This document shows, one piece after another, positions 26,711 through 60,511 of a stretch of DNA of 64,000 nt (its first letter is position 1; the number at the start of each line of letters is the position of its first letter). The DNA is from Hyphomicrobiales bacterium (GTDB lineage: Bacteria > Pseudomonadota > Alphaproteobacteria > Rhizobiales > NORP267): the NCBI GenBank assembly GCA_030688605.1, contig JAUYJB010000177.1, forward strand, positions 11,525 to 75,524, read 5' to 3'. The notes under the pieces were generated by a model, which was given only the letters and a program-made list of their open reading frames with translations, was not told where the DNA came from and did no database searches. The position numbers and the translations under genes are program-made.

Positions 26711-26787
26711 TGGTACAGCTGGCTGGATTCGAACCAGCGACCTCCTGATCCACAGTCAGGCGCTCTAACCAACTGAGCTACAGCTGC
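26711..26787 (-). tRNA. tRNA-His (anticodon GTG), encoded CCA, no encoded G-1
   Basis: The reverse complement folds by hand into a cloverleaf: GCAGCTG-TA-GCTC-AGTTGGTTA-GAGC-G-CCTGA-CTGTGGA-TCAGG-AGGTC-GCTGG-TTCGAAT-CCAGC-CAGCTGT-A-CCA. Position -1 is T, the first pair is G1:U72, and the discriminator is A73. Confidence 0.95.
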
Positions 26788-49620: not shown

Positions 49621-50391
49621 TCAACCCCCCGCCTTCTTCCCCGGCCGCAGCAGGTGGCGGTGGGCGGGGTCGTAGAGCGCCGAATCGCGGAAATCGTGCG
49701 CGGCCAGCACCGGACCGACGAGGATCAGCGCGGTGCGGGTGATCTTCGCCGCCCGCACCTTTTCCGCGATGTCGGCAAGCGTGCCGCGCAGGATTTTCTC
49801 GTCGGGCCAGCTCGCCCGATAGACGACGGCCACCGGGCAGTCCTCGCCGTAATGCGGCGTCAGCGCCTCGCGAACATGACGCAGATTACGCACCGAAAGG
49901 TGGATCGCCAGCGTCGCGCCGGAGCGGCCCAGCAGCTCCAGGCTCTCCCGCGCCGGCATCTCGGAGGCCTTCATCGCGGTGCGGGTGAGGATCAGCGTCT
50001 GGGCGATGCCGGGAAGCGTCAGCTCGGTCTTCAGCGCGGCGGCGGCGGCGGCATAGGCCGGCACACCCGGGGTCACGTCGAAGGGGATGGAAAGCGCCTT
50101 GAGCCGGCGCATCTGCTCGCCGATGGCGCCGTAAAGCGACGGGTCGCCGGAATGCACCCGCGCCACATCCTCGGCCCTCGCGTGCGCCCGCTCCATCTCG
50201 GCGATAATCTCGTCGAGCGTCATCGAGGCCGTGTCGCGTATGAGCGCGCCTTCCGGCGCCGCGGCGACCACCGCCTTCGGCACCAGGGAGCCCGCATAAA
50301 GGCACACCGGGCAGCGCTTAATCAGGTCGAGCCCGCGCACGGTGATGAGGTCGGCCGCCCCCGGCCCGGCGCCGATGAAATGCACGCTCAC
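49621..50391 (-). CDS. cobM: precorrin-4 / cobalt-precorrin-4 C11-methyltransferase
   Basis: ORF 49621..50391. GTG start overlaps the upstream stop. [18 protein letters not shown] and [11 protein letters not shown] motifs. Confidence 0.92.
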
Positions 50392-52292
50392 GCCGCGCCC
50401 TCCCGCTTGGCGGCGTAGCCGCGCGGCGCGTAGACCCGCGTCGCCCCGTCGCCGCGGGCAAAACCGCGCGTGGTCGAAGAGCCGACGATGACGAGGGTCG
50501 TCATGTCGACCGCTTCGGCGTCGAACGCGTCGAGGGTCGTGACCGTCACATGCTCCTTTTCCCTGCCGAGATGGGCGGCGACGACGACCGGGGTTTGCGG
50601 CGAACGGTGTTGCCGCAAGATCGCCATGGCCCGGTCGAGCGGGTCGCGCCTGCGCTTGGAGCGCGGATTGTAGAAGCAGACCGCGAAATCGGCCTTCGCG
50701 GCGGCGCGCACGCGGCTTTCGATGACGCCCCAGGGGGTGAGCAGGTCGGAAAGCGAGATCAGACAGAAATCGTGGCCGAGCGGCGCGCCGGCCCGCGCCG
50801 CGGCCGCCTGGAAGGCGGAAATTCCCGGCGCGACGATGATCTCGGCGCGGCGCGCGGCATCGCCGATGCCGCTCTCGGTCATGGGATCGAGCAGCTCGTA
50901 AACCAGCGCCGCCAAGGCGTAGATGCCGGGATCGCCGGAGGAGACCAGCGCCACGTCGCGGCCCTGCCCGGCAAGCTCCAGGGCATGGCGCGCCCGCGCT
51001 TCCTCCTCGCCCAGCGCGAAACGGTGCAGGCGAACGCCCCCGAAACGACCTTCAATCGGGTCGCTCCACCCCCTCACCCTACCCGTAGCTGGGTGAGGGG
51101 GTGATCCAACCTCGACCGATGAGACTCCGGTGAGCCCGGCGGCAAGGTCGAGATAGGCGCCGTAGCCGACCCAAACGTCCGCCGCGCGCAACAGATGCGC
51201 CGCCTCGGGGCTCAGCCATGAGGCCGCTCCGGGGCCGATGCCGACGATCGAAAGCCGGCCTCTGGCGCGCCCGATCTGCACCGGATCGAGCGCCCGTTCC
51301 GCCCGGGCGACGGCGCATGTGGCGCGCTTCGACTTGACCTTTTCGACGACGAGCGTCCCTTGCGGCCCGACGGCGGCGAGCGCTGCGGCCTCGGCGACGC
51401 CGGCGACGCCGACCTCGCGCAGGACGGCCTCGGAAGGGTTGACAAGGCGCGGGGTTTCGGCCTCGAGCGCCTGACCGGCGAAGAACCGCGCCGGCACGCC
51501 AAGATGGGCGGCAAGCGTGTGGATCGCCGGCTCGTCGGCCTTGATGTCGAGCGAGCCGACAAGCGCGACCGCCGCTGCGGCGAGATCGTTGCCGGCCAAG
51601 ACGGTCTCGACGAGAGAGATCAACTCCTCACCGTCGCAGCCGCGTTCGCAGCCGACCCCCAGCGCCAGCACCTTCGGGTGATAGACCAGGCGGTCCGGTC
51701 CCCCGGCCACGCGCCGTTCGGTCGCGATAAGCGTAATCGTCCCGTCGCCGGAAAGCGGCAGGCCGCTCTCGGCAAGCCACGGCGCATTGCCCTCGATCCG
51801 CGCGCTCTGGCCGGCAAGCAGCGCCGCCATGACCGGCTTCGCATCCTGCGGGTTGGCCAGGACCCAGCCCTCGGGCGGATCGTCGAGCGCCAGGCCGAAG
51901 CGCGCATCGCTCGCCGTGGTGATCGCCGGGGCAATGCCGAGCGCTGCGCCGATGCGGCCGGCAAGTTCGTTGGCCCCCCTGTGGCCACCGAGCAGCGGCA
52001 CGACCGCCTTGCCGTTCTCGGCAACCGCCACCACCGGCGGCTCGGCGCGCTTGTCCAAAAGCAGACGGGCAAGAGCGCGGATGAGGATGCCGGCGGCGCA
52101 CAGGCCGACGATCGGCGAACGATCGGCAAACAGGCCGGCAAGATGCGTCATGGTGTCGTCGAAGTGAGCGTCAACGCCGTCGACTCGGCCGCTTGCCCCA
52201 TGGATCTCGCCTTCCCCGAGCGCTTCGCGCAATCTGCGCGCGGTGGCCGCCCCGCCAGGGGAAAGCACAACAAAAACAGGCGCTTTCACCAT
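50388..52292 (-). CDS. cobJ: bifunctional CbiG (cobalt-precorrin-5A hydrolase)-like / precorrin-3B C17-methyltransferase (CobJ/CbiH) fusion
   Basis: Part of ORF 50388..52700. ATG at 52292 overlaps the cobI stop. The N-terminal approximately 330 aa are CbiG-like ([25 protein letters not shown] ... [10 protein letters not shown]). The C-terminal half is a TP-methylase (LSIVGIGPG ... [12 protein letters not shown] ... [11 protein letters not shown]). Confidence 0.9.
51052..51122. repeat. intragenic palindromic element inside the cobJ domain
   Basis: 13-bp perfect stem CACCCCCTCACCC (51067..51079) / GGGTGAGGGGGTG (51091..51103) with an 11-nt loop. Flanked by imperfect outer arms TCAATCGGGTCG / CGACCGATGA. 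Translated in frame as [25 protein letters not shown]. Confidence 0.6.
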
Positions 52293-52993
52293 GACGGGCT
52301 CCCGGAATAGATCAGGATCATCGAAAAATAAGGCCGTGCGCCTTCGGGAACCTCGCTCAACGGATAGATGCGTTCTTCGGCCAGCGTCGCGCTCTCGACG
52401 ACGGACGCCTTTTCGTCGAGCCCGAGGACGCGCAACAGCGCCCGCAGCCGGTCGAAATGCCGGCCGACCTTGATGATGGCAACGGATTTTGCCCGCCCCA
52501 GCTCCGCCCGCAACTGCTCGTCGTCGAGGGTCCCCGGCAGCACCTTGATCACGTCGTCGCGGGCGGCGAGCGGCTGACGCAGGCGGGCGGCCGCCGCGGT
52601 GAGCGATGTCACGCCGGGGATAACCTCGATTCTGTGCCGCCGCGCCAGCCTGGCGAAGACGTAAATGAAACTGCCATAGAAGAACGGGTCGCCGGCGCAC
52701 AGAAAGACCACGTCGTCGCCCTTGTCGAGCCGCGCGGAAATGGCGGAAATCGCCGCTTCATAGGCGTCCAGCGCCGCGCCCTCGCTGCCGCGCTTGAAGA
52801 TCGGCACCGGCAGCTCCTCGGCGCCTTGGGGGATGTACGGGGCGGCGATCTTGCGCGCCAGGGCGGCGCCTTCCTTGTCGATGGGAAAGGCGATCAGATT
52901 CGCCTCGGAAATCAGCCGCGCCCCCTTGACGGTCAGAAGCTCCGGGTCGCCCGGCCCGACCCCCACGCCGTAAAGAACTCCCTTCTCGATCAT
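52286..52993 (-). CDS. cobI: precorrin-2 / cobalt-factor-II C20-methyltransferase
   Basis: ORF 52286..52993. LYGVGVGPGDPELLTVKG and CAGDPFFYGS motifs. Confidence 0.92.
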   Translation of the reverse strand: MIEKGVLYGVGVGPGDPELLTVKGARLISEANLIAFPIDKEGAALARKIAAPYIPQGAEELPVPIFKRGSEGAALDAYEAAISAISARLDKGDDVVFLCAGDPFFYGSFIYVFARLARRHRIEVIPGVTSLTAAAARLRQPLAARDDVIKVLPGTLDDEQLRAELGRAKSVAIIKVGRHFDRLRALLRVLGLDEKASVVESATLAEERIYPLSEVPEGARPYFSMILIYSGSPSW

Positions 52994-52997
52994 AGGC

Positions 52998-54203
52998 TTA
53001 ACCCTTCACCGCGCGCCATTGCATGACGCTCATGCGAGGCTTCAGGCCGCGCTTGCCGCCGACCGGGGCGAGAGGAGCGATGTCGATGCGGACGAGATCG
53101 CCGCCATATCGCCCCTGGCGGGCGATCAGCGCCGCTTCCCCTTCCAGCGTCACGGAATTGGCGACCAATCGCCCGCCTTGCGGCAAAGCCGACCAGCAGG
53201 CCTCGAACACCGCCTCGTCGGCCACCGCCCCGCCGTGGAATAGGACGTCCGGATGGGCCCTGCCTTGCAACGTCTCCGGCACCTTACCCGCCACGATTTC
53301 TAGATCCGGCACGCCGAGTGAACGCGCGTTCTCTCCGATCAGGGAAACGCGGTTCTGGTCGCGCTCGAAAGCGGTTGCGCGGGCGCCCCTTGCTGCGCGC
53401 ATCCATTCGACGGCGACCGAACCGCAGCCGGCGCCGACGTCCCAAAGCAGCGCGCCCGGCAGGGGCCCCAGGGCCGCCAGGGTCACCGCGCGCACCTCGC
53501 GCTTGGTGATCTGGCCGTCATGGCGGAAGGCTTCATCGGGCAATCCCGGCACCCGCGGCAATAGGACGGCTTCGGGCCCGGCGACACATTCGATCGCCAA
53601 CAGGTTGAATTCGGCGAAGGGTTGCCCGGAAACCTCTTCGGCGCTCAGCGCGACGCTGCGCTCGGCCGCCCCTCCCATATGCTCCAGCACATGCAGGCGG
53701 CTCTTCCCATAGCCCCGGCGCCGCAACAGATCGGCGACCTCGCACACCGTCCCGGCACCGCCGGTCAGCGCCAGGATGCGGGCGCCGGGCGCGATCAGAG
53801 GCGCGATCAGTGCCGCCGGCCGGCCGTGCAGCGACAGGCATTCGACCTCCTGCAGCGGCCAGCCGAGGCGCGCCGCCGCCAGGGCGAAGGCCGACGGCGC
53901 CGGCACGACGCGCATTTCCTCAAGCGGGATATGGCGCAAGAGCGTGCAGCCGACGCCGAAATGCATCGGATCGCCGCTCGCCAGCACCGCGACGGCGCGG
54001 CCGCGCCAGCCGGCGATGCGTGCAATCGTTTGCGACAGCGGCGAGGACCACACATGCAATTCCCGGCCCTCGGGGACAAGCCCCGCAAGCAGGCGTTCCG
54101 CGCCGACGACGATCTCCGCCGCATCGACAAGCGCCTTTGCCGCCGGGGGCAGGCCGGAAACGCCGTCGTCGCCGACGCCGATGACGCTGAGCCACGGTCT
54201 CAT
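52998..54203 (-). CDS. cobL: precorrin-6Y C5,15-methyltransferase (decarboxylating), CbiE/CbiT fusion type
   Basis: ORF 52998..54203. N-terminal TP-methylase (LSVIGVGDDG ... ASGDPMHFG). C-terminal SAM-methyltransferase motif (LWDVGAGCGSVAVE). Confidence 0.92.
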   Translation of the reverse strand: MRPWLSVIGVGDDGVSGLPPAAKALVDAAEIVVGAERLLAGLVPEGRELHVWSSPLSQTIARIAGWRGRAVAVLASGDPMHFGVGCTLLRHIPLEEMRVVPAPSAFALAAARLGWPLQEVECLSLHGRPAALIAPLIAPGARILALTGGAGTVCEVADLLRRRGYGKSRLHVLEHMGGAAERSVALSAEEVSGQPFAEFNLLAIECVAGPEAVLLPRVPGLPDEAFRHDGQITKREVRAVTLAALGPLPGALLWDVGAGCGSVAVEWMRAARGARATAFERDQNRVSLIGENARSLGVPDLEIVAGKVPETLQGRAHPDVLFHGGAVADEAVFEACWSALPQGGRLVANSVTLEGEAALIARQGRYGGDLVRIDIAPLAPVGGKRGLKPRMSVMQWRAVKG

Positions 54204-54826
54204 GCGGCCTCTCCCGCGCTAAGCGCGTTGACCGCGGCGCCGGCCAGCGCCGAGCCGCCGCGCCGGCCGAGAAGCGTCAGGAAGTGCACGCCGCGCGGAT
54301 TTTTCGCAAGCTCGGCCTTGGATTCGGCGGCGCCGATAAAGCCGACCGGAAAGGCGAGGATCGCCGCGGGCTGAGGCGCCCCGGCATCGAGCGCTTCCAA
54401 GAGCGCGAACAGCGCCGTCGGCGCGTTGCCGATGGCGACGACGGCGCCTTCAAGCCGCGCCCGCCACAAGCAGACCGCCGCCGCCGAGCGGGTGGTGCCC
54501 TGCCTTGCGGCCAGATCGGGGACCGAGGGGTCGTTGAGCGTGCAAATCACTTCGTTTGCGGCCGGCAAGCGGGAGCGGATGATCGCTCTTGCCGTCATTT
54601 CGGTGTCGGCCAGGACCGGAACGCCGGCAGAAAGTGCTTGTCTTGCCGCCGCCACGACGCCGGCGTCGAAGCGCAGATCGGAAACAAGGTCGGTCATGCC
54701 GCAGGCATGGATCAGGCGCACGACTACCGGGTCGAGCGCCGCCGGCAGGCCGGAAAGATCGGCTTCGGCCCGGATCGCGGCGAAGGAGCGGGCGTAGATT
54801 TCAGCCGGATCCCGTAGATAATCCAT
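54200..54826 (-). CDS. cobH: precorrin-8X methylmutase
   Basis: ORF 54200..54826. ATGA overlap with cobL. VVRLIHACGM and AIGNAPTAL motifs. Confidence 0.92.
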   Translation of the reverse strand: MDYLRDPAEIYARSFAAIRAEADLSGLPAALDPVVVRLIHACGMTDLVSDLRFDAGVVAAARQALSAGVPVLADTEMTARAIIRSRLPAANEVICTLNDPSVPDLAARQGTTRSAAAVCLWRARLEGAVVAIGNAPTALFALLEALDAGAPQPAAILAFPVGFIGAAESKAELAKNPRGVHFLTLLGRRGGSALAGAAVNALSAGEAA

Positions 54827-54851
54827 CGGCCGGTCCTCTCAGATCCCGCGC

Positions 54852-55850
54852 TCAACCCTCCTTGGCCTTCAGGGTCCTGGGTCCAAGTGGGTGGTCGGCA
54901 TGGGGATAGGGATGACGGTGCGCATGCGCATGGTGGCGATGCGCCCCGGCGGCAAGGCCTTCGACATGATGGTGGTGGCTCTGCTGCGGCAGGCCGACCT
55001 CGGCCTCGAAGCCGGGAAGCGCGTCGCGATATTTGCACAGCGCGCAATTCATCGCCGTGTCGCCGTTCAAGGTCTCGTGCACCCGCTCGATGAAGGTTTC
55101 GACGACAAGCTCGTGGTCGCCGAGATAGGGCGCCTTGACGAATTCGATCTTCGGATGGAGGGCGGCGACCTCGTCGGTATGGGCGTAGATGCGGTTCACC
55201 AAAACGCCGATGAACAGAAAATAGGGAAAGACGACGATGCGTTTGAAGCCGAGCCTTGCCGCGCGCTCCAGTGCCGGGCGAACGAGCGGGAAGGTGACGC
55301 CGGAATAGGCAGTCTCGCCCCAGCCGAAGCCCAGGCCCTCCCACAGCATGCGCATTACCTTGGCGACGTTGGAGTTGGCGTCGGGGTCGGACGCGCCGCG
55401 CCCGACCACGAGCAGCAGCGTCTCGGGCACCGGCACCGCATCCCCTGCCCGCGCCAGCGCCTCCTGGATACGCGCGGCGGCCGCGCCCAGCATCTTGGCG
55501 TCGATGCCGAGCTCGCGGCCATAGTCGATGCGCAGGCCGGGATGGCGGGCGGCATAGTCGTTGAGGAGCGCCGGAATGTCGTTCTTGGCATGGCCGGCGG
55601 CAAACAGCATTCCGGGCACGGCAAGGATGCGCGTGACGCCCCCGTCGCGCAGCCTGTCGAGGCCGTCGCCGATAATCGGCGTTGCGAACTCCAGATAGCC
55701 GTGGGCGAGGGGAACTTGCGCAAGGCGGGTCTTCAGGGCGCCGACCAGCGCCGCGAACTCGGCGACCGCATCGGAATCGCGGCTGCCATGGCCGCAGACC
55801 AAAACCCCGAGGTTTCCGGCTTCGGCGTCGAATTGGGCTGTCGATGTCAT
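54852..55850 (-). CDS. cbiX: long-form sirohydrochlorin cobaltochelatase CbiX-like protein with C-terminal Fe-S motif and His-rich tail
   Basis: ORF 54852..55850. Duplicated CbiX domains (GVLVCGHGSRD ; LLVVGRGASDPDANS). MxCxxC motif (AMNCALCKY). Tail QQSHHHHVEGLAAGAHRHHAHAHRHPYPHADHP. Confidence 0.85.
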   Translation of the reverse strand: MTSTAQFDAEAGNLGVLVCGHGSRDSDAVAEFAALVGALKTRLAQVPLAHGYLEFATPIIGDGLDRLRDGGVTRILAVPGMLFAAGHAKNDIPALLNDYAARHPGLRIDYGRELGIDAKMLGAAAARIQEALARAGDAVPVPETLLLVVGRGASDPDANSNVAKVMRMLWEGLGFGWGETAYSGVTFPLVRPALERAARLGFKRIVVFPYFLFIGVLVNRIYAHTDEVAALHPKIEFVKAPYLGDHELVVETFIERVHETLNGDTAMNCALCKYRDALPGFEAEVGLPQQSHHHHVEGLAAGAHRHHAHAHRHPYPHADHPLGPRTLKAKEG

Positions 55851-56012
55851 AGTCGCCTCCTCGTGCGGAACGCGCGGGAGGCAGAATTCGCATGTGAGGA
55901 GGCCCGCCGGCGGCGGCGGGCTTTTCTTGAAACGCAGCTCCGGACTTGGCCCCCTGATTGGGTCGGCCGCACCGGACTAGCTTTCAGTTCCTCAACGGAA
56001 CGCTGCCTGGCC
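55851..56012 (-). promoter_or_regulatory. structured 5' leader of the cbiX operon with SD-sequestering helices (unclassified; no canonical cobalamin riboswitch recognised)
   Basis: The minus-strand RNA shows three layers. First, a closing stem GCAGC/GCUGC around hairpin GUUCC-GUUGA-GGAAC and an irregular hairpin AGCU..CCGG..GGCC..GGCC..CCGG..AGCU. Second, a GC hairpin GCCCGCCG-CCGC-CGGCGGGC. Third, two anti-SD copies (GCCUCCUC, GCCUCC) complementary to the SD GAGGAGGC that lies 5 nt before the AUG. Confidence 0.4.
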
Positions 56013-56130
56013 CTAGAGCGCATTTCGTGAAACCGGAGTCACTCAAAGCGCTCTAACTTTTTTATTTTACGCGCATTTTTGTCCGAAAACCGGTTCCCAC
56101 TTTTCGGAATGCGCTTTAGAGCGGTTCTAG
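56013..56130. mobile_element. MITE-like element, family 2 (118 bp, CTAG at both ends, imperfect terminal inverted repeats)
   Basis: Left end CTAGAGCGCATTTCGTGAAACCGG. The right end reads, as reverse complement, CTAGAACCGCTCTAAAGCGCATTCCGAAAAGTGGGAACCGG. AT-rich centre. It shares TAGAGCGGTTC with the family 1 termini. Confidence 0.6.
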
Positions 56131-56142
56131 AACACGATCCGC

Positions 56143-56430
56143 TCAGCCGCCGGACATCGCCGTCAGCACGTAGACCGTCGCGCCGTCGGGCAGTGGAGTC
56201 TTGAGGGTCGCCCGCCGTCCTTCGACGAAGACGTTGATGTTGCGCCGGATTTGCGGCGTCGAATCGCGCAGACGGTCGCGCATGCCCGGCCAGCGGGAGT
56301 CCAGCGCGTCGAGCATATGGCCGACCGTCGAAGCGGCAAGCTCCACCTCTCCCACGGAACCCGGAAACAGGCTCACCAGGGCGCCGGGAAGCACGACCGT
56401 GACGGTCGGCGCTGCGGTGTCGTCCGGCAT
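56143..56430 (-). CDS. MoaD/ThiS-family ubiquitin-fold protein ending in Gly-Gly
   Basis: Part of ORF 56143..56451. ATG at 56430 after AGGAGAGG. 95 aa. INVFVEGRRATLKTPLPDGATVYVLTAMSGG matches the MoaD/ThiS C-terminal pattern. Confidence 0.7.
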   Translation of the reverse strand: MPDDTAAPTVTVVLPGALVSLFPGSVGEVELAASTVGHMLDALDSRWPGMRDRLRDSTPQIRRNINVFVEGRRATLKTPLPDGATVYVLTAMSGG

Positions 56431-56456
56431 TGGGCAAACCTCTCCTGCCACGCACT

Positions 56457-57539
56457 CTACGCGTCGACAACCAGCGTCTCAATCGAGGTGATGATGGGCA
56501 TATGCTCGGCGATGCACCGCCAGCTGTCGCCCTCGTCGATGCTGGCGAACAACGAGCCTGAATTGGTGCCGAAATAGATCCCTGCCGGCTCGAGCGGGTC
56601 GGTCGCCATGGCCTGGCGCAACACGGCGCAAAAGGCGTTCTTCTGGGGCAGCCCCCGGCGAAGGGCCTCCCAGCTCGCGCCGCCGTCGCGCGTGCGCCAC
56701 ACCGCCGCCTTGCCGTCGGGCACGTAGCGGCCGAGCACGTCGCCGTTGAGCGGGATGAGGTAGAGGGTCTCGGGGTCGCGGGGATGGACCGCGGACGGAA
56801 AGCCGAAAGTGGAGGGCAGGCCCGCCTCGATGCTTTCCCACTTCTTGCCGCCGTCCGCGCTGCGATACATGCCGCAATGGTTCTGCTGATAGAGACGGTC
56901 GGGCATGCCCGGCGCCATGACGATCGAGTGCACGCACTGGCCATGCTCGGCATAGCGCTGACCCTCGGGAAGATAGTCGTTGCGCGTGCCCCGGTTGCGC
57001 GCCTCCCAGCTCGCGCCGCCGTCGCCCGAATGGAAGACGCCGCCGGCGGAGACCGCGACCCAGAGCTGCTTCTCGTCTTCGGGATGACGAAGGATCGAAT
57101 GCAGGATGAGGCCGCCGCCGCCCGGCGTCCAGTCGGAGCGGGAGGGGTGCTTCTGCAATCCGTCGATGTGCCGCCAGGTCAGGCCCGCATCGTTGCTGCC
57201 GAACAGGCCGGCCGGCTCGACGCCGGCATGGAGCCTTTCCCCGTTCGGCGCCACGCACCAGACCGATCTGATCGGAACTTCCCCTTCGGCATAGGCGAGA
57301 CCCTCGCTCGAATGCGACCAGCTGTTGCCGAGGTCGGTGGATTTCCAGACCGCCGGGCCGAACCATTCGTTGCCGCCGCCGGCATAGATGGTGCCGGTCG
57401 CAGCCTCGGCGATGACGTGATTGATCGGCCAGGCTTCGCAATACGGCCCGCCGAGCTCCCAGGAACGCCGTCTCGGATTGCCTTCGAGGATAAAGGCGCC
57501 CTTCCTCGTTCCTACCAGAATGAGGACCTTCTTCGCCAT
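56457..57539 (-). CDS. BNR/Asp-box repeat beta-propeller protein (sialidase-fold, no signal peptide)
   Basis: Part of ORF 56457..57605. ATG at 57539 after AGGGAGG. Six Asp-boxes: STDLGNSW, SNDAGLTW, SGDGGASW, SADGGKKW, TRDGGASW, SIDEGDSW. Confidence 0.8.
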   Translation of the reverse strand: MAKKVLILVGTRKGAFILEGNPRRRSWELGGPYCEAWPINHVIAEAATGTIYAGGGNEWFGPAVWKSTDLGNSWSHSSEGLAYAEGEVPIRSVWCVAPNGERLHAGVEPAGLFGSNDAGLTWRHIDGLQKHPSRSDWTPGGGGLILHSILRHPEDEKQLWVAVSAGGVFHSGDGGASWEARNRGTRNDYLPEGQRYAEHGQCVHSIVMAPGMPDRLYQQNHCGMYRSADGGKKWESIEAGLPSTFGFPSAVHPRDPETLYLIPLNGDVLGRYVPDGKAAVWRTRDGGASWEALRRGLPQKNAFCAVLRQAMATDPLEPAGIYFGTNSGSLFASIDEGDSWRCIAEHMPIITSIETLVVDA

Positions 57540-57816
57540 TTTCCGCCTCCCTTGCGCACCGAACGGCCGCTGCGCGGGCTTTGTCCGTCTATGGCCTTGG
57601 AGCATCCGACCGCCGCCAGACGGTAGTTTGTCCGGGCCAATATCTGCAAGCGACGATTGCGTGATCGCTTCGGCGTTGACGCGGTCACGGCCCCGATCTT
57701 GTCGCCAACGACGATGGCGGAAAATGGGCCTGAGCGGGGCATTTCACGTCTTGCCCTGAGCAGGGAGGCAGGCCATGCTTCCCATTCGCGATCTCGCGCA
57801 AAAAGGGAGGACCACG

Positions 57817-60378: not shown

Positions 60379-60475
60379 GGGAGGTTGGCGGCGGACGAGC
60401 CGCTCGCCAACCGGGTCAGGTCCGGAAGGAAGCAGCCCCAACGAGACCGGCACGGGTTGTCGTCCAGCCTCCCAC
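60379..60475 (+). ncRNA. ffs: signal recognition particle RNA (4.5S/SRP RNA, ffs)
   Basis: Contains the universally conserved domain IV sequence GGGUCAGGUCCGGAAGGAAGCAGCC. The 5' GGGAGGUUGG pairs with the 3' CCAGCCUCCC. It sits in the classic position immediately upstream of dnaX. Ends are approximate. Confidence 0.85.
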
Positions 60476-60511
60476 CGGGGCGCCGAAAAGGTCCGGGGCC
60501 GGGGAGGCCGA

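Follow-up and report, generated by a model that had tools for sequence, protein, structure and literature searches.

What kind of RNA precedes the cbiX operon in the 64-kb window analysed here, if it is not a canonical cobalamin riboswitch? The window is the whole 64,000-nt stretch taken from a Hyphomicrobiales metagenome-assembled genome (MAG), and the leader in question lies on its minus strand, between an insertion resembling a miniature inverted-repeat transposable element (MITE; about 56122-56013) and the cbiX ATG (55850). A first-pass annotation had described this leader as highly structured and lacking a recognisable B12 box, and the sequence features that it listed are all present on the minus strand, where it had placed them. 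We found that a 77-nt domain of the leader belongs to a conserved structured-RNA family absent from Rfam, and sequence comparisons indicate that the family evolved from a cobalamin riboswitch, from which it keeps the junction together with the P2 and P4 arms. That the domain is a real, functional, riboswitch-derived structured RNA seems to us very probable. The further reading, that it is a cis-acting, riboswitch-like regulator of translation initiation, is given a probability of roughly 55%.

The family was described by a covariance model, R1, which comprises a P1-P2-P4 junction of three stems, the junction strand CUGRRAG and the internal loop GGUGC..CCAA. On the window, R1 produced a full-model match at 56008-55932 of the minus strand, with the 3′ end of the aptamer-like domain 81 nt before the cbiX ATG. 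The features of the locus are as follows.

56013-56122, minus strand: MITE-like insertion, outside the RNA family; absent from L083-L086 and present in L081 and L082 (related loci are numbered with an L), with sub-threshold matches to BASRCI27 and BASRCI408.
55932-56008, minus strand: conserved three-stem junction domain (aptamer-like), 77 nt; full-length R1 match, 91.5 bits, E 3.8e-22.
56002-56006, minus strand: P1 5′ strand, GCAGC, with its partner GCUGC at 55934-55938.
55987-56001, minus strand: P2 hairpin, GUUCC-GUUGA-GGAAC, equivalent of the P2 arm in Cbl-I riboswitches.
55977-55986, minus strand: junction J2/4, UGAAAGCUAG, with the near-invariant CUGRRAG core; U55979 is column 38 of the alignment.
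55939-55976, minus strand: P4 arm, UCCGG/UGC/GGCC/GA/CCC-AAUCA-GGG/GGCC/AAGU/CCGGA, the cobalamin riboswitch P4 with the alphaproteobacterial hairpin inserted in L4.
55934-55938, minus strand: P1 3′ strand, GCUGC, which together with the P4 3′ strand makes up AAGUCCGGAGCUGCG.
55902-55921, minus strand: perfect 8-bp GC hairpin, GCCCGCCG-CCGC-CGGCGGGC, between the aptamer and the Shine-Dalgarno (SD) hairpin.
55896-55902, minus strand: distal anti-SD copy, CCUCCUC, within GCCUCCUC (55903-55896); invariant in seven close relatives.
55877-55882, minus strand: GCCUCC, the proximal anti-SD; in the predicted minimum free energy (MFE) fold of the platform alone, and in that of the leader with the aptamer forced, its partner is the SD.
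55855-55862, minus strand: SD sequence, GAGGAGGC, which ends 4 nt before the ATG (spacer GACU), its GGAGG core being 5 nt from the ATG.
54852-55850, minus strand: cbiX, encoding a CbiX-long protein of 332 aa with an MxCxxC motif and a His-rich tail (Pfam PF01903, 1.2e-51).

Scans against Rfam agreed with the view that the leader holds no recognisable cobalamin riboswitch. At the gathering scores, the whole 64-kb window contained no cobalamin, adenosylcobalamin (AdoCbl)-variant or NiCo match, the sole matches being a tRNA at 26714-26787 (-) with 77 bits and the bacterial small signal recognition particle RNA at 60379-60476 (+) with 57.7 bits. A permissive scan of positions 55700-56300 (E≤10) also returned no cobalamin, AdoCbl, AdoCbl-variant or NiCo match; the only hits of any size were the MITE matches to BASRCI27 and BASRCI408, and those in the leader and the early coding sequence were discarded as noise (c-di-GMP-I within the cbiX coding sequence, at 18.8 bits for a gathering score of 35, as well as CPEB3 ribozyme, microRNA and small nucleolar RNA families). 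The window leader carries neither the GCCACUG motif nor a full B12 box, and no P5 or P6 element was found between P4 and the ATG, only the three-way junction of P1, P2 and P4 being supported. The string AAGUCCGGAGCUGCG (55947-55933, minus strand), which had been noted as resembling a B12 box, is indeed there, but it is made up of the P4 3′ strand and, after it, the closing strand GCUGC. A regular expression for the B12 box, applied to 70 instances of the motif, matched five of them (window, L081, L084, L085 and L116); these matches fall in the GC-rich hairpin region and were judged spurious. RF00174, whose gathering threshold is 31.5 bits, detects neither the window copy of the motif nor the copies at 47 other loci; L003 is the single exception. 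The variant is undescribed in Rfam 15 and in the literature searched; an earlier mention in Vitreschak 2003 or Nahvi 2004 is possible.

Folded alone, the 56008-55932 segment forms the three-stem junction with a free energy of -33.4 kcal/mol, a single-sequence fold only marginally better than those of shuffled sequences (z -1.9). The 3′ remainder of the leader (87 nt) forms the GC hairpin and a GCCUCC:GGAGGC hairpin that pairs the SD, and its z value is -3.4. The existence of structure beyond chance is established by two other observations: in relatives the leader is more alike than the cbiX coding DNA, and the stems covary in 64 distinct copies. Two open reading frames (ORFs) overlapping the leader were rejected as coding, namely a 58-aa ORF at 56023-55847, whose start falls inside the MITE, and an out-of-frame ORF from the ATG at 55893, which is unconserved (CAUGCG becomes AUUGAG in L084).

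The first of these observations comes from contigs encoding CbiX proteins 99%, 85%, 83% and 80% identical to that of the window. In these close relatives the leader is near-invariant from AGGCAGCG to the ATG, and the coding sequence diverges right after it. Identity to the window amounts to 92-95% for the aptamer, 79-89% for the platform and 81-84% for the cbiX coding sequence. The GC hairpin is retained in L081-L086 and L116 despite loop changes, indels and one G.U substitution; the proximal anti-SD:SD hairpin is invariant. The GUUCCG repeat in the SD-hairpin loop of the window is unconserved in L084-L086.

Covariation was evaluated on a wider set. Among 80 genome loci selected by CbiX protein homology alone, many contain the core string CCGGUGCGGCCGACCC about 100 nt upstream of cbiX, and further copies were collected by a degenerate pattern scan of metagenome contigs, from which random coding matches were discarded. 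That pattern fixed bases in P4 and P4a, and left P1, P2, the junction and columns 38-72 unconstrained. The resulting alignment, A2, holds 64 distinct aptamer sequences. With the structure P1/P2/P4-P4a-P4b imposed on it, 92.7% of the cells are standard pairs, and double-sided changes occur in 12 of the 23 base pairs, against 3.8 +/- 1.2 when the columns were shuffled (0/500). As a control, the 3′ partners were slid along, which reduced pairing to 28-61%; RNAalifold recovered the same three stems unaided. In the covariation check, which the first-pass annotation had proposed for orthologous cbiX leaders, sequence and structure are conserved in relatives, and the highly structured leader and the three-way-junction-like 5′ domain which it had described are borne out.

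Compensatory changes are distributed over all stems. In P1 we observed the strand combinations GCAGC/GCUGC, GACGGC/GCUGUC, GACGGU/ACUGUC and ACAGC/GCUGU, with the pair at columns 3-84 of A2 being GC in 50 sequences, AU in 8 and GU in 5. P2 is paired in 98.7% of the cells, and four of its five pairs show double changes (UA/CG/UG), as exemplified by GUUCC/GGAAC, GUCCC/GGGAC, GCCCC/GGGGC and GCCUG/CAGGC. In the P4 arm the combinations were UCCGG/CCGGA and CCCGG/CCGGG in P4, GGCC/GGCC, GACC/GGUC and GGUU/GACC in P4a, and CCC/GGG and CUU/AAG in P4b. Columns C22, U23, G24 and A27 of J2/4 are invariant in A2.

A mutual-information scan revealed an additional contact. Columns 38 and 72 form the strongest covarying pair outside the helices, level at the top with the P2 pair 9-28; standard pairs occur there in 75% of the sequences, versus 41 +/- 6% expected, and 26 double changes were counted (0/500). 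The two positions, U55979 and G55945 in the window, belong to J2/4 (column 38) and to the 3′ internal loop of P4 (column 72), respectively. Since this pair crosses P4, it would be an isolated, pseudoknotted tertiary Watson-Crick contact. The covarying pair suggests that in the truncated RNA a T-loop-like element of L4 may dock on the junction strand, a place taken by L6 in canonical B12 riboswitches.

The origin of the family was traced through loci in which the motif meets a recognisable cobalamin riboswitch. A single one of the first 20 related loci, L003 (Fodinicurvata halophila), gave an RF00174 match, at 47 bits. The alignment to RF00174 contains the same P2 hairpin, the UGAAAGG junction and the P4 arm, in which the GGCC-GA-CCC hairpin appears as a 21-nt insertion in L4. 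The L003 element then continues with P5, P6 and a B12 box (AAGUCAGUCAGCCUGCC), followed by hupE-cbiX; it scores 74 bits with R1 and can form a proximal P1 (GGACGGU/ACUGUUC). Weaker second R1 matches of 23-41 bits were found on L129, L145, L164 and L066 (40 bits, E about 1e-8, on L129 and L145), and they fall inside RF00174 matches of 76-128 bits. The canonical riboswitches of L129 and L145 carry the same P4 arm. Because these R1 matches lie within strong RF00174 matches, B12 riboswitches of alphaproteobacteria normally carry the P4 insertion, and their 5′ half is the homologue of the window motif. The suggestion of a truncated, unclassified relative of the cobalamin riboswitch is therefore supported by the R1 alignment, and the motif falls in no Rfam family. 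As P5, P6 and the B12 box are absent, so is the corrin-binding four-way junction; a P3-P6 four-way junction and a kissing loop on P5 are common to all known cobalamin riboswitches (PMC7367189). In canonical copies, P5 begins and the B12 box ends with CUGCC, and a deletion between these repeats, which would leave exactly P4 followed by the closing strand, may have given rise to the family. At L204 (1060-1300), about 150 nt separate the motif from HupE and include GGGAAG and GCCAGUG-like strings whose order is non-canonical, with RF00174 below threshold; this element may be a further intermediate between the full and truncated forms.

Several clusters possess both elements. The gene order of L129 is an RF00174 riboswitch (128 bits), cbtB-cbtA-cobW-cobN-cobO, the truncated motif and cbiX, and a canonical riboswitch accompanies the truncated motif on one contig in L145, L164 and L066 as well. 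The premise that a cbiX operon should carry a full riboswitch thus does not hold for this clade, which typically has the truncated motif at that place and the canonical one several kb upstream, before cbtB-cbtA-cobW-cobN-cobO. Since both elements occur in one cluster, the truncated RNA is no stand-in for a missing B12 sensor.

The distribution of the motif is tightly bound to a small set of genes. Full-length R1 matches were obtained at 36 of the 80 protein-selected cbiX loci (13 of these 36 were outside the training set), always just upstream and on the same strand, together with more than 50 matches in metagenome loci. As a criterion for members of the family, a distance of 15-220 nt from the motif to the start of a cbiX, DUF6732 or cobE gene on the same strand was used, and the window copy falls within this range. 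The next gene is cbiX itself in 57 distinct leaders, an ORF of 57-80 aa followed by cbiX in about 17, and HupE/UreJ in L204 and L003. The small ORF is defined by a signal peptide, the sequence HPGH..GHGHSHW, one transmembrane helix and a basic tail, and corresponds to Pfam DUF6732 (L010:2808-3020, L179, L117, L123, L049 and others). It resembles the N-terminus of HupE/UreJ and, by its sequence, looks like a periplasmic-facing protein binding a metal, possibly cobalt; no mention of DUF6732 was found in the literature searched.

A blastn search of PLSDB with the aptamer gave matches in chromosome-sized Sinorhizobium records. In S. meliloti the motif (63.5 bits) is located about 75 nt upstream of cobE (CbiG_C)-cobA (SUMT)-cobB, at L207:2493-2570, which is CP090106.1 2188929-2189006; Rfam gave no match at this site at E≤1. 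The S. meliloti record, of 3.7 Mb, is labelled pSymB and is probably the chromosome. The same operon is preceded by the motif in S. fredii (61 bits) and Ensifer adhaerens (65 bits), and by a more divergent form in Mycoplana (30.5 bits, E 1.7e-6); the motif is absent from cobE of R. leguminosarum. At the S. meliloti, S. fredii and E. adhaerens sites (L207, L208, L209), no feature is recorded in the PLSDB gene table, which omits RNA genes. Because the downstream genes are cbiX, DUF6732-cbiX, HupE-cbiX and cobE-cobA-cobB, the regulon appears to consist of the entry steps of the corrin branch and of cobalt-related proteins.

How might such an RNA act? Two hairpins, the first GC-rich and the second an anti-SD:SD hairpin, come after the aptamer in every clade, and the platform sequences vary by clade behind a constant aptamer. 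This is the usual pattern of translational riboswitches and forms, at the level of the family, the basis of the mechanism that we propose. The RNA would act in cis at the 5′ end of the mRNA, in the manner of a riboswitch, on translation initiation. In the window, the SD (GAGGAGGC) would be held in a hairpin by the GCCUCC downstream of the junction domain, and the state of this domain would modulate SD sequestration in response to a signal from the B12 pathway. The idea of a double anti-SD pairing with the SD is supported for the proximal copy, which stands in the predicted SD hairpin; the distal copy is unpaired with the SD in the predicted folds. In Aestuariivirga-type leaders, the P1 3′ strand GCUGC is continuous with the anti-SD CUUCC, so that P1 competes with a 9-bp SD helix. 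A distal second GCUGC in these leaders was considered as a candidate closing strand or pseudoknot; several of them have GCCGC or nothing instead, and the loop geometry is poor. SD accessibility was compared between free and aptamer-forced folds only. In Aestuariivirga-type leaders, forcing the aptamer raises the predicted accessibility from about 0.1 to 0.4.

Several results weigh against a regulator of this kind. In the window lineage, the forced aptamer lowers the predicted SD accessibility from 0.27 to 0.11, so that the effect is opposite between clades, and about half of the leaders showed no change. The leaders revealed no consistent switching helix. When duplex formation between the 5′ strand of the aptamer and the platform was compared with dinucleotide shuffles, the window gave a z value of -0.37 and the 68 leaders a mean of -0.77, and the SD hairpin folds independently of the aptamer in most clades. 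The corrin-binding core is gone, which makes the canonical binding mode impossible, and the conservation of P4 was in part imposed by the pattern used to collect the copies. Furthermore, the native promoter of the cbiX operon is missing from the window contig, and is lost if the junction at the MITE described below is real. The description of the leader as a classic ON/OFF platform is not supported, given aptamer-platform complementarity at the level of shuffles and accessibility shifts of opposite sign. An anti-aptamer switch between GGCAGCGUUC..UGAGGA and UCCUCA..GAAUUCUGCC, which can be paired by eye and is used by the MFE fold of the window, is not claimed. Inspection of the P2 loop, the P4 loop and J2/4 for complementarity to the SD-hairpin loop, as an analogue of the kissing loop, gave no conserved match.

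We put at about even the odds that the RNA senses a small molecule or an ion, and they are shared about equally between a corrinoid and another ligand, either a metal or an early tetrapyrrole. The analysis shows the family, its structure, its homology to the riboswitch 5′ half, its association with genes and a predicted SD hairpin; that a ligand binds, which ligand it would be and whether it turns expression on or off are inferred. One tentative reading is that two peripheral arms of the B12 riboswitch now form a riboswitch for a new ligand (Co2+ or uroporphyrinogen III, precorrin-2 or sirohydrochlorin), which would gate entry into the corrin branch (cbiX, cobA) beside canonical B12 riboswitches. 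It accords with the entry-point and cobalt-handling genes found downstream (the CbiX cobaltochelatase, the His-rich DUF6732 protein, HupE and the SUMT encoded by cobA), with the coexistence of both elements in one cluster, and with a near-invariant junction that takes part in a tertiary pair of its own; many leaders also have an anti-SD directly adjoining the P1 3′ strand, so that closing P1 would free the SD, as expected of an ON switch. Variant riboswitches with altered ligands also have precedent (PMC9295807, PMC10853860). The motif does not match NiCo or any other metal riboswitch, however, the logic of the platform is inconsistent across clades, and cobE, the first gene in Sinorhizobium, has no obvious metal role. 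It is rather unlikely, in our judgement, that the RNA is a minimised sensor of AdoCbl or another cobamide which binds B12 in a new mode and represses the entry of the pathway by end-product feedback. All of the associated genes belong to B12 biosynthesis or cobalt metabolism, the motif descends from a B12 riboswitch with the RF00174-scoring version of L003 in the same position, and the slightly greater SD sequestration in the aptamer-forced fold of the window matches OFF logic. Yet P5, P6, J6/3 and the B12 box are absent from an architecture whose four-way junction and kissing loop are otherwise universal (PMC7367189), a second, crippled sensor in clusters with canonical B12 riboswitches needs a reason, and the Aestuariivirga-type platforms look like ON switches.

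The structured leader could also work without binding any small molecule, as a docking site for a protein or a small RNA, a 5′ structure that stabilises the mRNA or a processing signal, with the SD hairpin setting a low constitutive level of translation. The independent folding of aptamer and SD hairpin in most clades, the lack of significant alternative pairing and the loss of the parent's ligand-binding core all fit this explanation, which we nevertheless regard as unlikely: a junction of about 10 nt and its internal loops are near-invariant across lineages whose CbiX proteins are only 60-70% identical, there is a covarying tertiary pair, and a platform that varies behind a constant aptamer is the usual signature of riboswitches. 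A decaying remnant of a cobalamin riboswitch, left without function after a deletion, would explain why the motif resembles the canonical element minus its 3′ half, and the CUGCC repeats could have permitted such a deletion. Compensatory changes arose within the truncated family, though, the motif is more conserved than the adjacent coding sequence, and it occurs in many genera and before two operon types, which makes mere decay very improbable. Still less credence can be given to the proposal that the GC hairpin serves as a plus-strand intrinsic terminator against antisense transcription into the leader. The plus strand does read GCCCGCCGGCGGCGGCGGGC followed by TTTTCTTGAAA, but the A-tract that gives the U-run is deleted in L081, 97.6% identical to the window; the T-run is missing from L081-L083 and L086 (CACGAG, CACGTG or CAACGG instead), a terminator scan flagged no site on either strand, and upstream on the plus strand there is only the antisense of cbiX and no gene.

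The surroundings of the leader bear on its transcription. The MITE-like element is 110 nt long, with the terminal inverted repeats GCTCTAAAGCGCATT ... AAATGCGCTCTAG, and is the only copy in the window. Its sub-threshold Rfam matches, BASRCI27 (33.5 bits) and BASRCI408 (37.7 bits), are to repeat-derived families named 'Brucella sRNA' (small RNA), which thus seem to describe a mobile repeat found throughout the Hyphomicrobiales. The MITE named in the first-pass annotation is consistent with these matches and with its absence from L083-L086. In relatives that lack the MITE, a conserved promoter, TTGACC-N17/18-TAAGAGT, lies about 35 nt upstream of P1 and is preceded by cobN-cobO. In L081 and L082 (97.6% nucleotide identity to the window), the MITE is inserted between promoter and leader. 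The window matches L081 (1760-1960) only from the left end of the MITE onward (window 56013-56160), and beyond this a ThiS-like gene ends; the 64-kb window contains no cobO and no cobN. Two explanations fit the junction at the left end of the MITE, namely a rearrangement at the repeat and a mis-join in the MAG. Beyond the junction, at 56143-57605 (-), a ThiS/MoaD-like gene of 102 aa comes directly after one for a 382-aa protein with BNR/Sortilin-Vps10 repeats, and the pair abuts the cbiX leader.

On the other side of the leader, cbiX is the first gene of the operon cbiX-cbiC-cobL-cbiL-cbiGH-cbiF, in which the intergenic gaps are tiny or the genes overlap. After cbiX come cbiC/cobH, cobL, a methylase of the cbiL/cobI type, a CbiG_N-CbiG_C-methylase fusion (cbiGH) and a methylase of the cbiF/cobM type. 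This operon (49621-55850, minus strand) bears the early-cobalt, 'anaerobic-type' markers CbiX-long and the CbiG-CbiH fusion, and the clusters of relatives (L084, L129) add the 'aerobic-type' late-chelatase genes cobN, cobW and cbtAB.

Few riboswitches are as widespread and as well studied as those for cobalamin. A covarying derivative without the four-way core, placed before B12-pathway genes and beside canonical copies, raises the question of what half a riboswitch can sense; the answer would be either a new mode of corrinoid binding or a new ligand. S. meliloti and E. adhaerens are genetically tractable and are used for industrial B12 production, and with the motif upstream of cobE-cobA-cobB in both, the question can be tested directly. 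The entry step of B12 synthesis (SUMT or cobaltochelatase) may have in this element a control point so far overlooked, and cob operons that appear riboswitch-free by Rfam may still be regulated by RNA. A new ligand, if confirmed, would mean a new class of riboswitch, in which a compact three-way junction has been made out of two peripheral arms taken from the cobalamin riboswitch.

The NiCo riboswitch (czcD motif), which would be the known RNA sensor for Co2+ and was named in the first-pass annotation, is a four-way junction that controls efflux genes, and it shows no sequence or structure match to the motif. Variant riboswitch classes offer a parallel. The guanine aptamer has given rise to variants for xanthine, 8-oxoguanine and 2′-deoxyguanosine (PMC9295807, PMC10556655), and the S-adenosylmethionine aptamer to one for spermidine (PMC10853860); such classes likewise have a scaffold related to a known class, copies that fall below or outside the parent model, and a distinct or narrower gene association. 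They keep the architecture of the parent with few binding-site bases altered, whereas here about half of the parent aptamer, including the binding core, is gone. In Aestuariivirga-type leaders, pairing of GCUGCCUUCC, after P4, with the SD GGAAGGCAG is reminiscent of the L5-L13 kissing loop of cobalamin riboswitches; the window has nothing equivalent and no P5 hairpin. The nearest known system is the RF00174 Cbl-I riboswitch in its alphaproteobacterial form with the L4 hairpin. Both RNAs have a closing strand on the 5′ side, a P2 hairpin arm and a junction rich in purines (UGAAAG versus AAAAGGGAA); both also contain the P4 arm CCGGUGC-[GGCC GA CCC loop GGG GGCC]-AA-CCGG followed by GCUGC, and both occur in the 5′ leaders of genes for B12 biosynthesis and cobalt. 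The motif differs in that the P5 hairpin with L5, P6, GCCACUG and the B12 box (rAGYCMGgAgaCCkGCc) with J6/3 are absent, the closing strand follows directly after P4, and a three-way junction of 77 nt replaces an element of about 190-215 nt. The L003 element contains the whole motif in the same position relative to cbiX and, unlike the window, in the full-length form, which makes it a plausible evolutionary bridge between the two.

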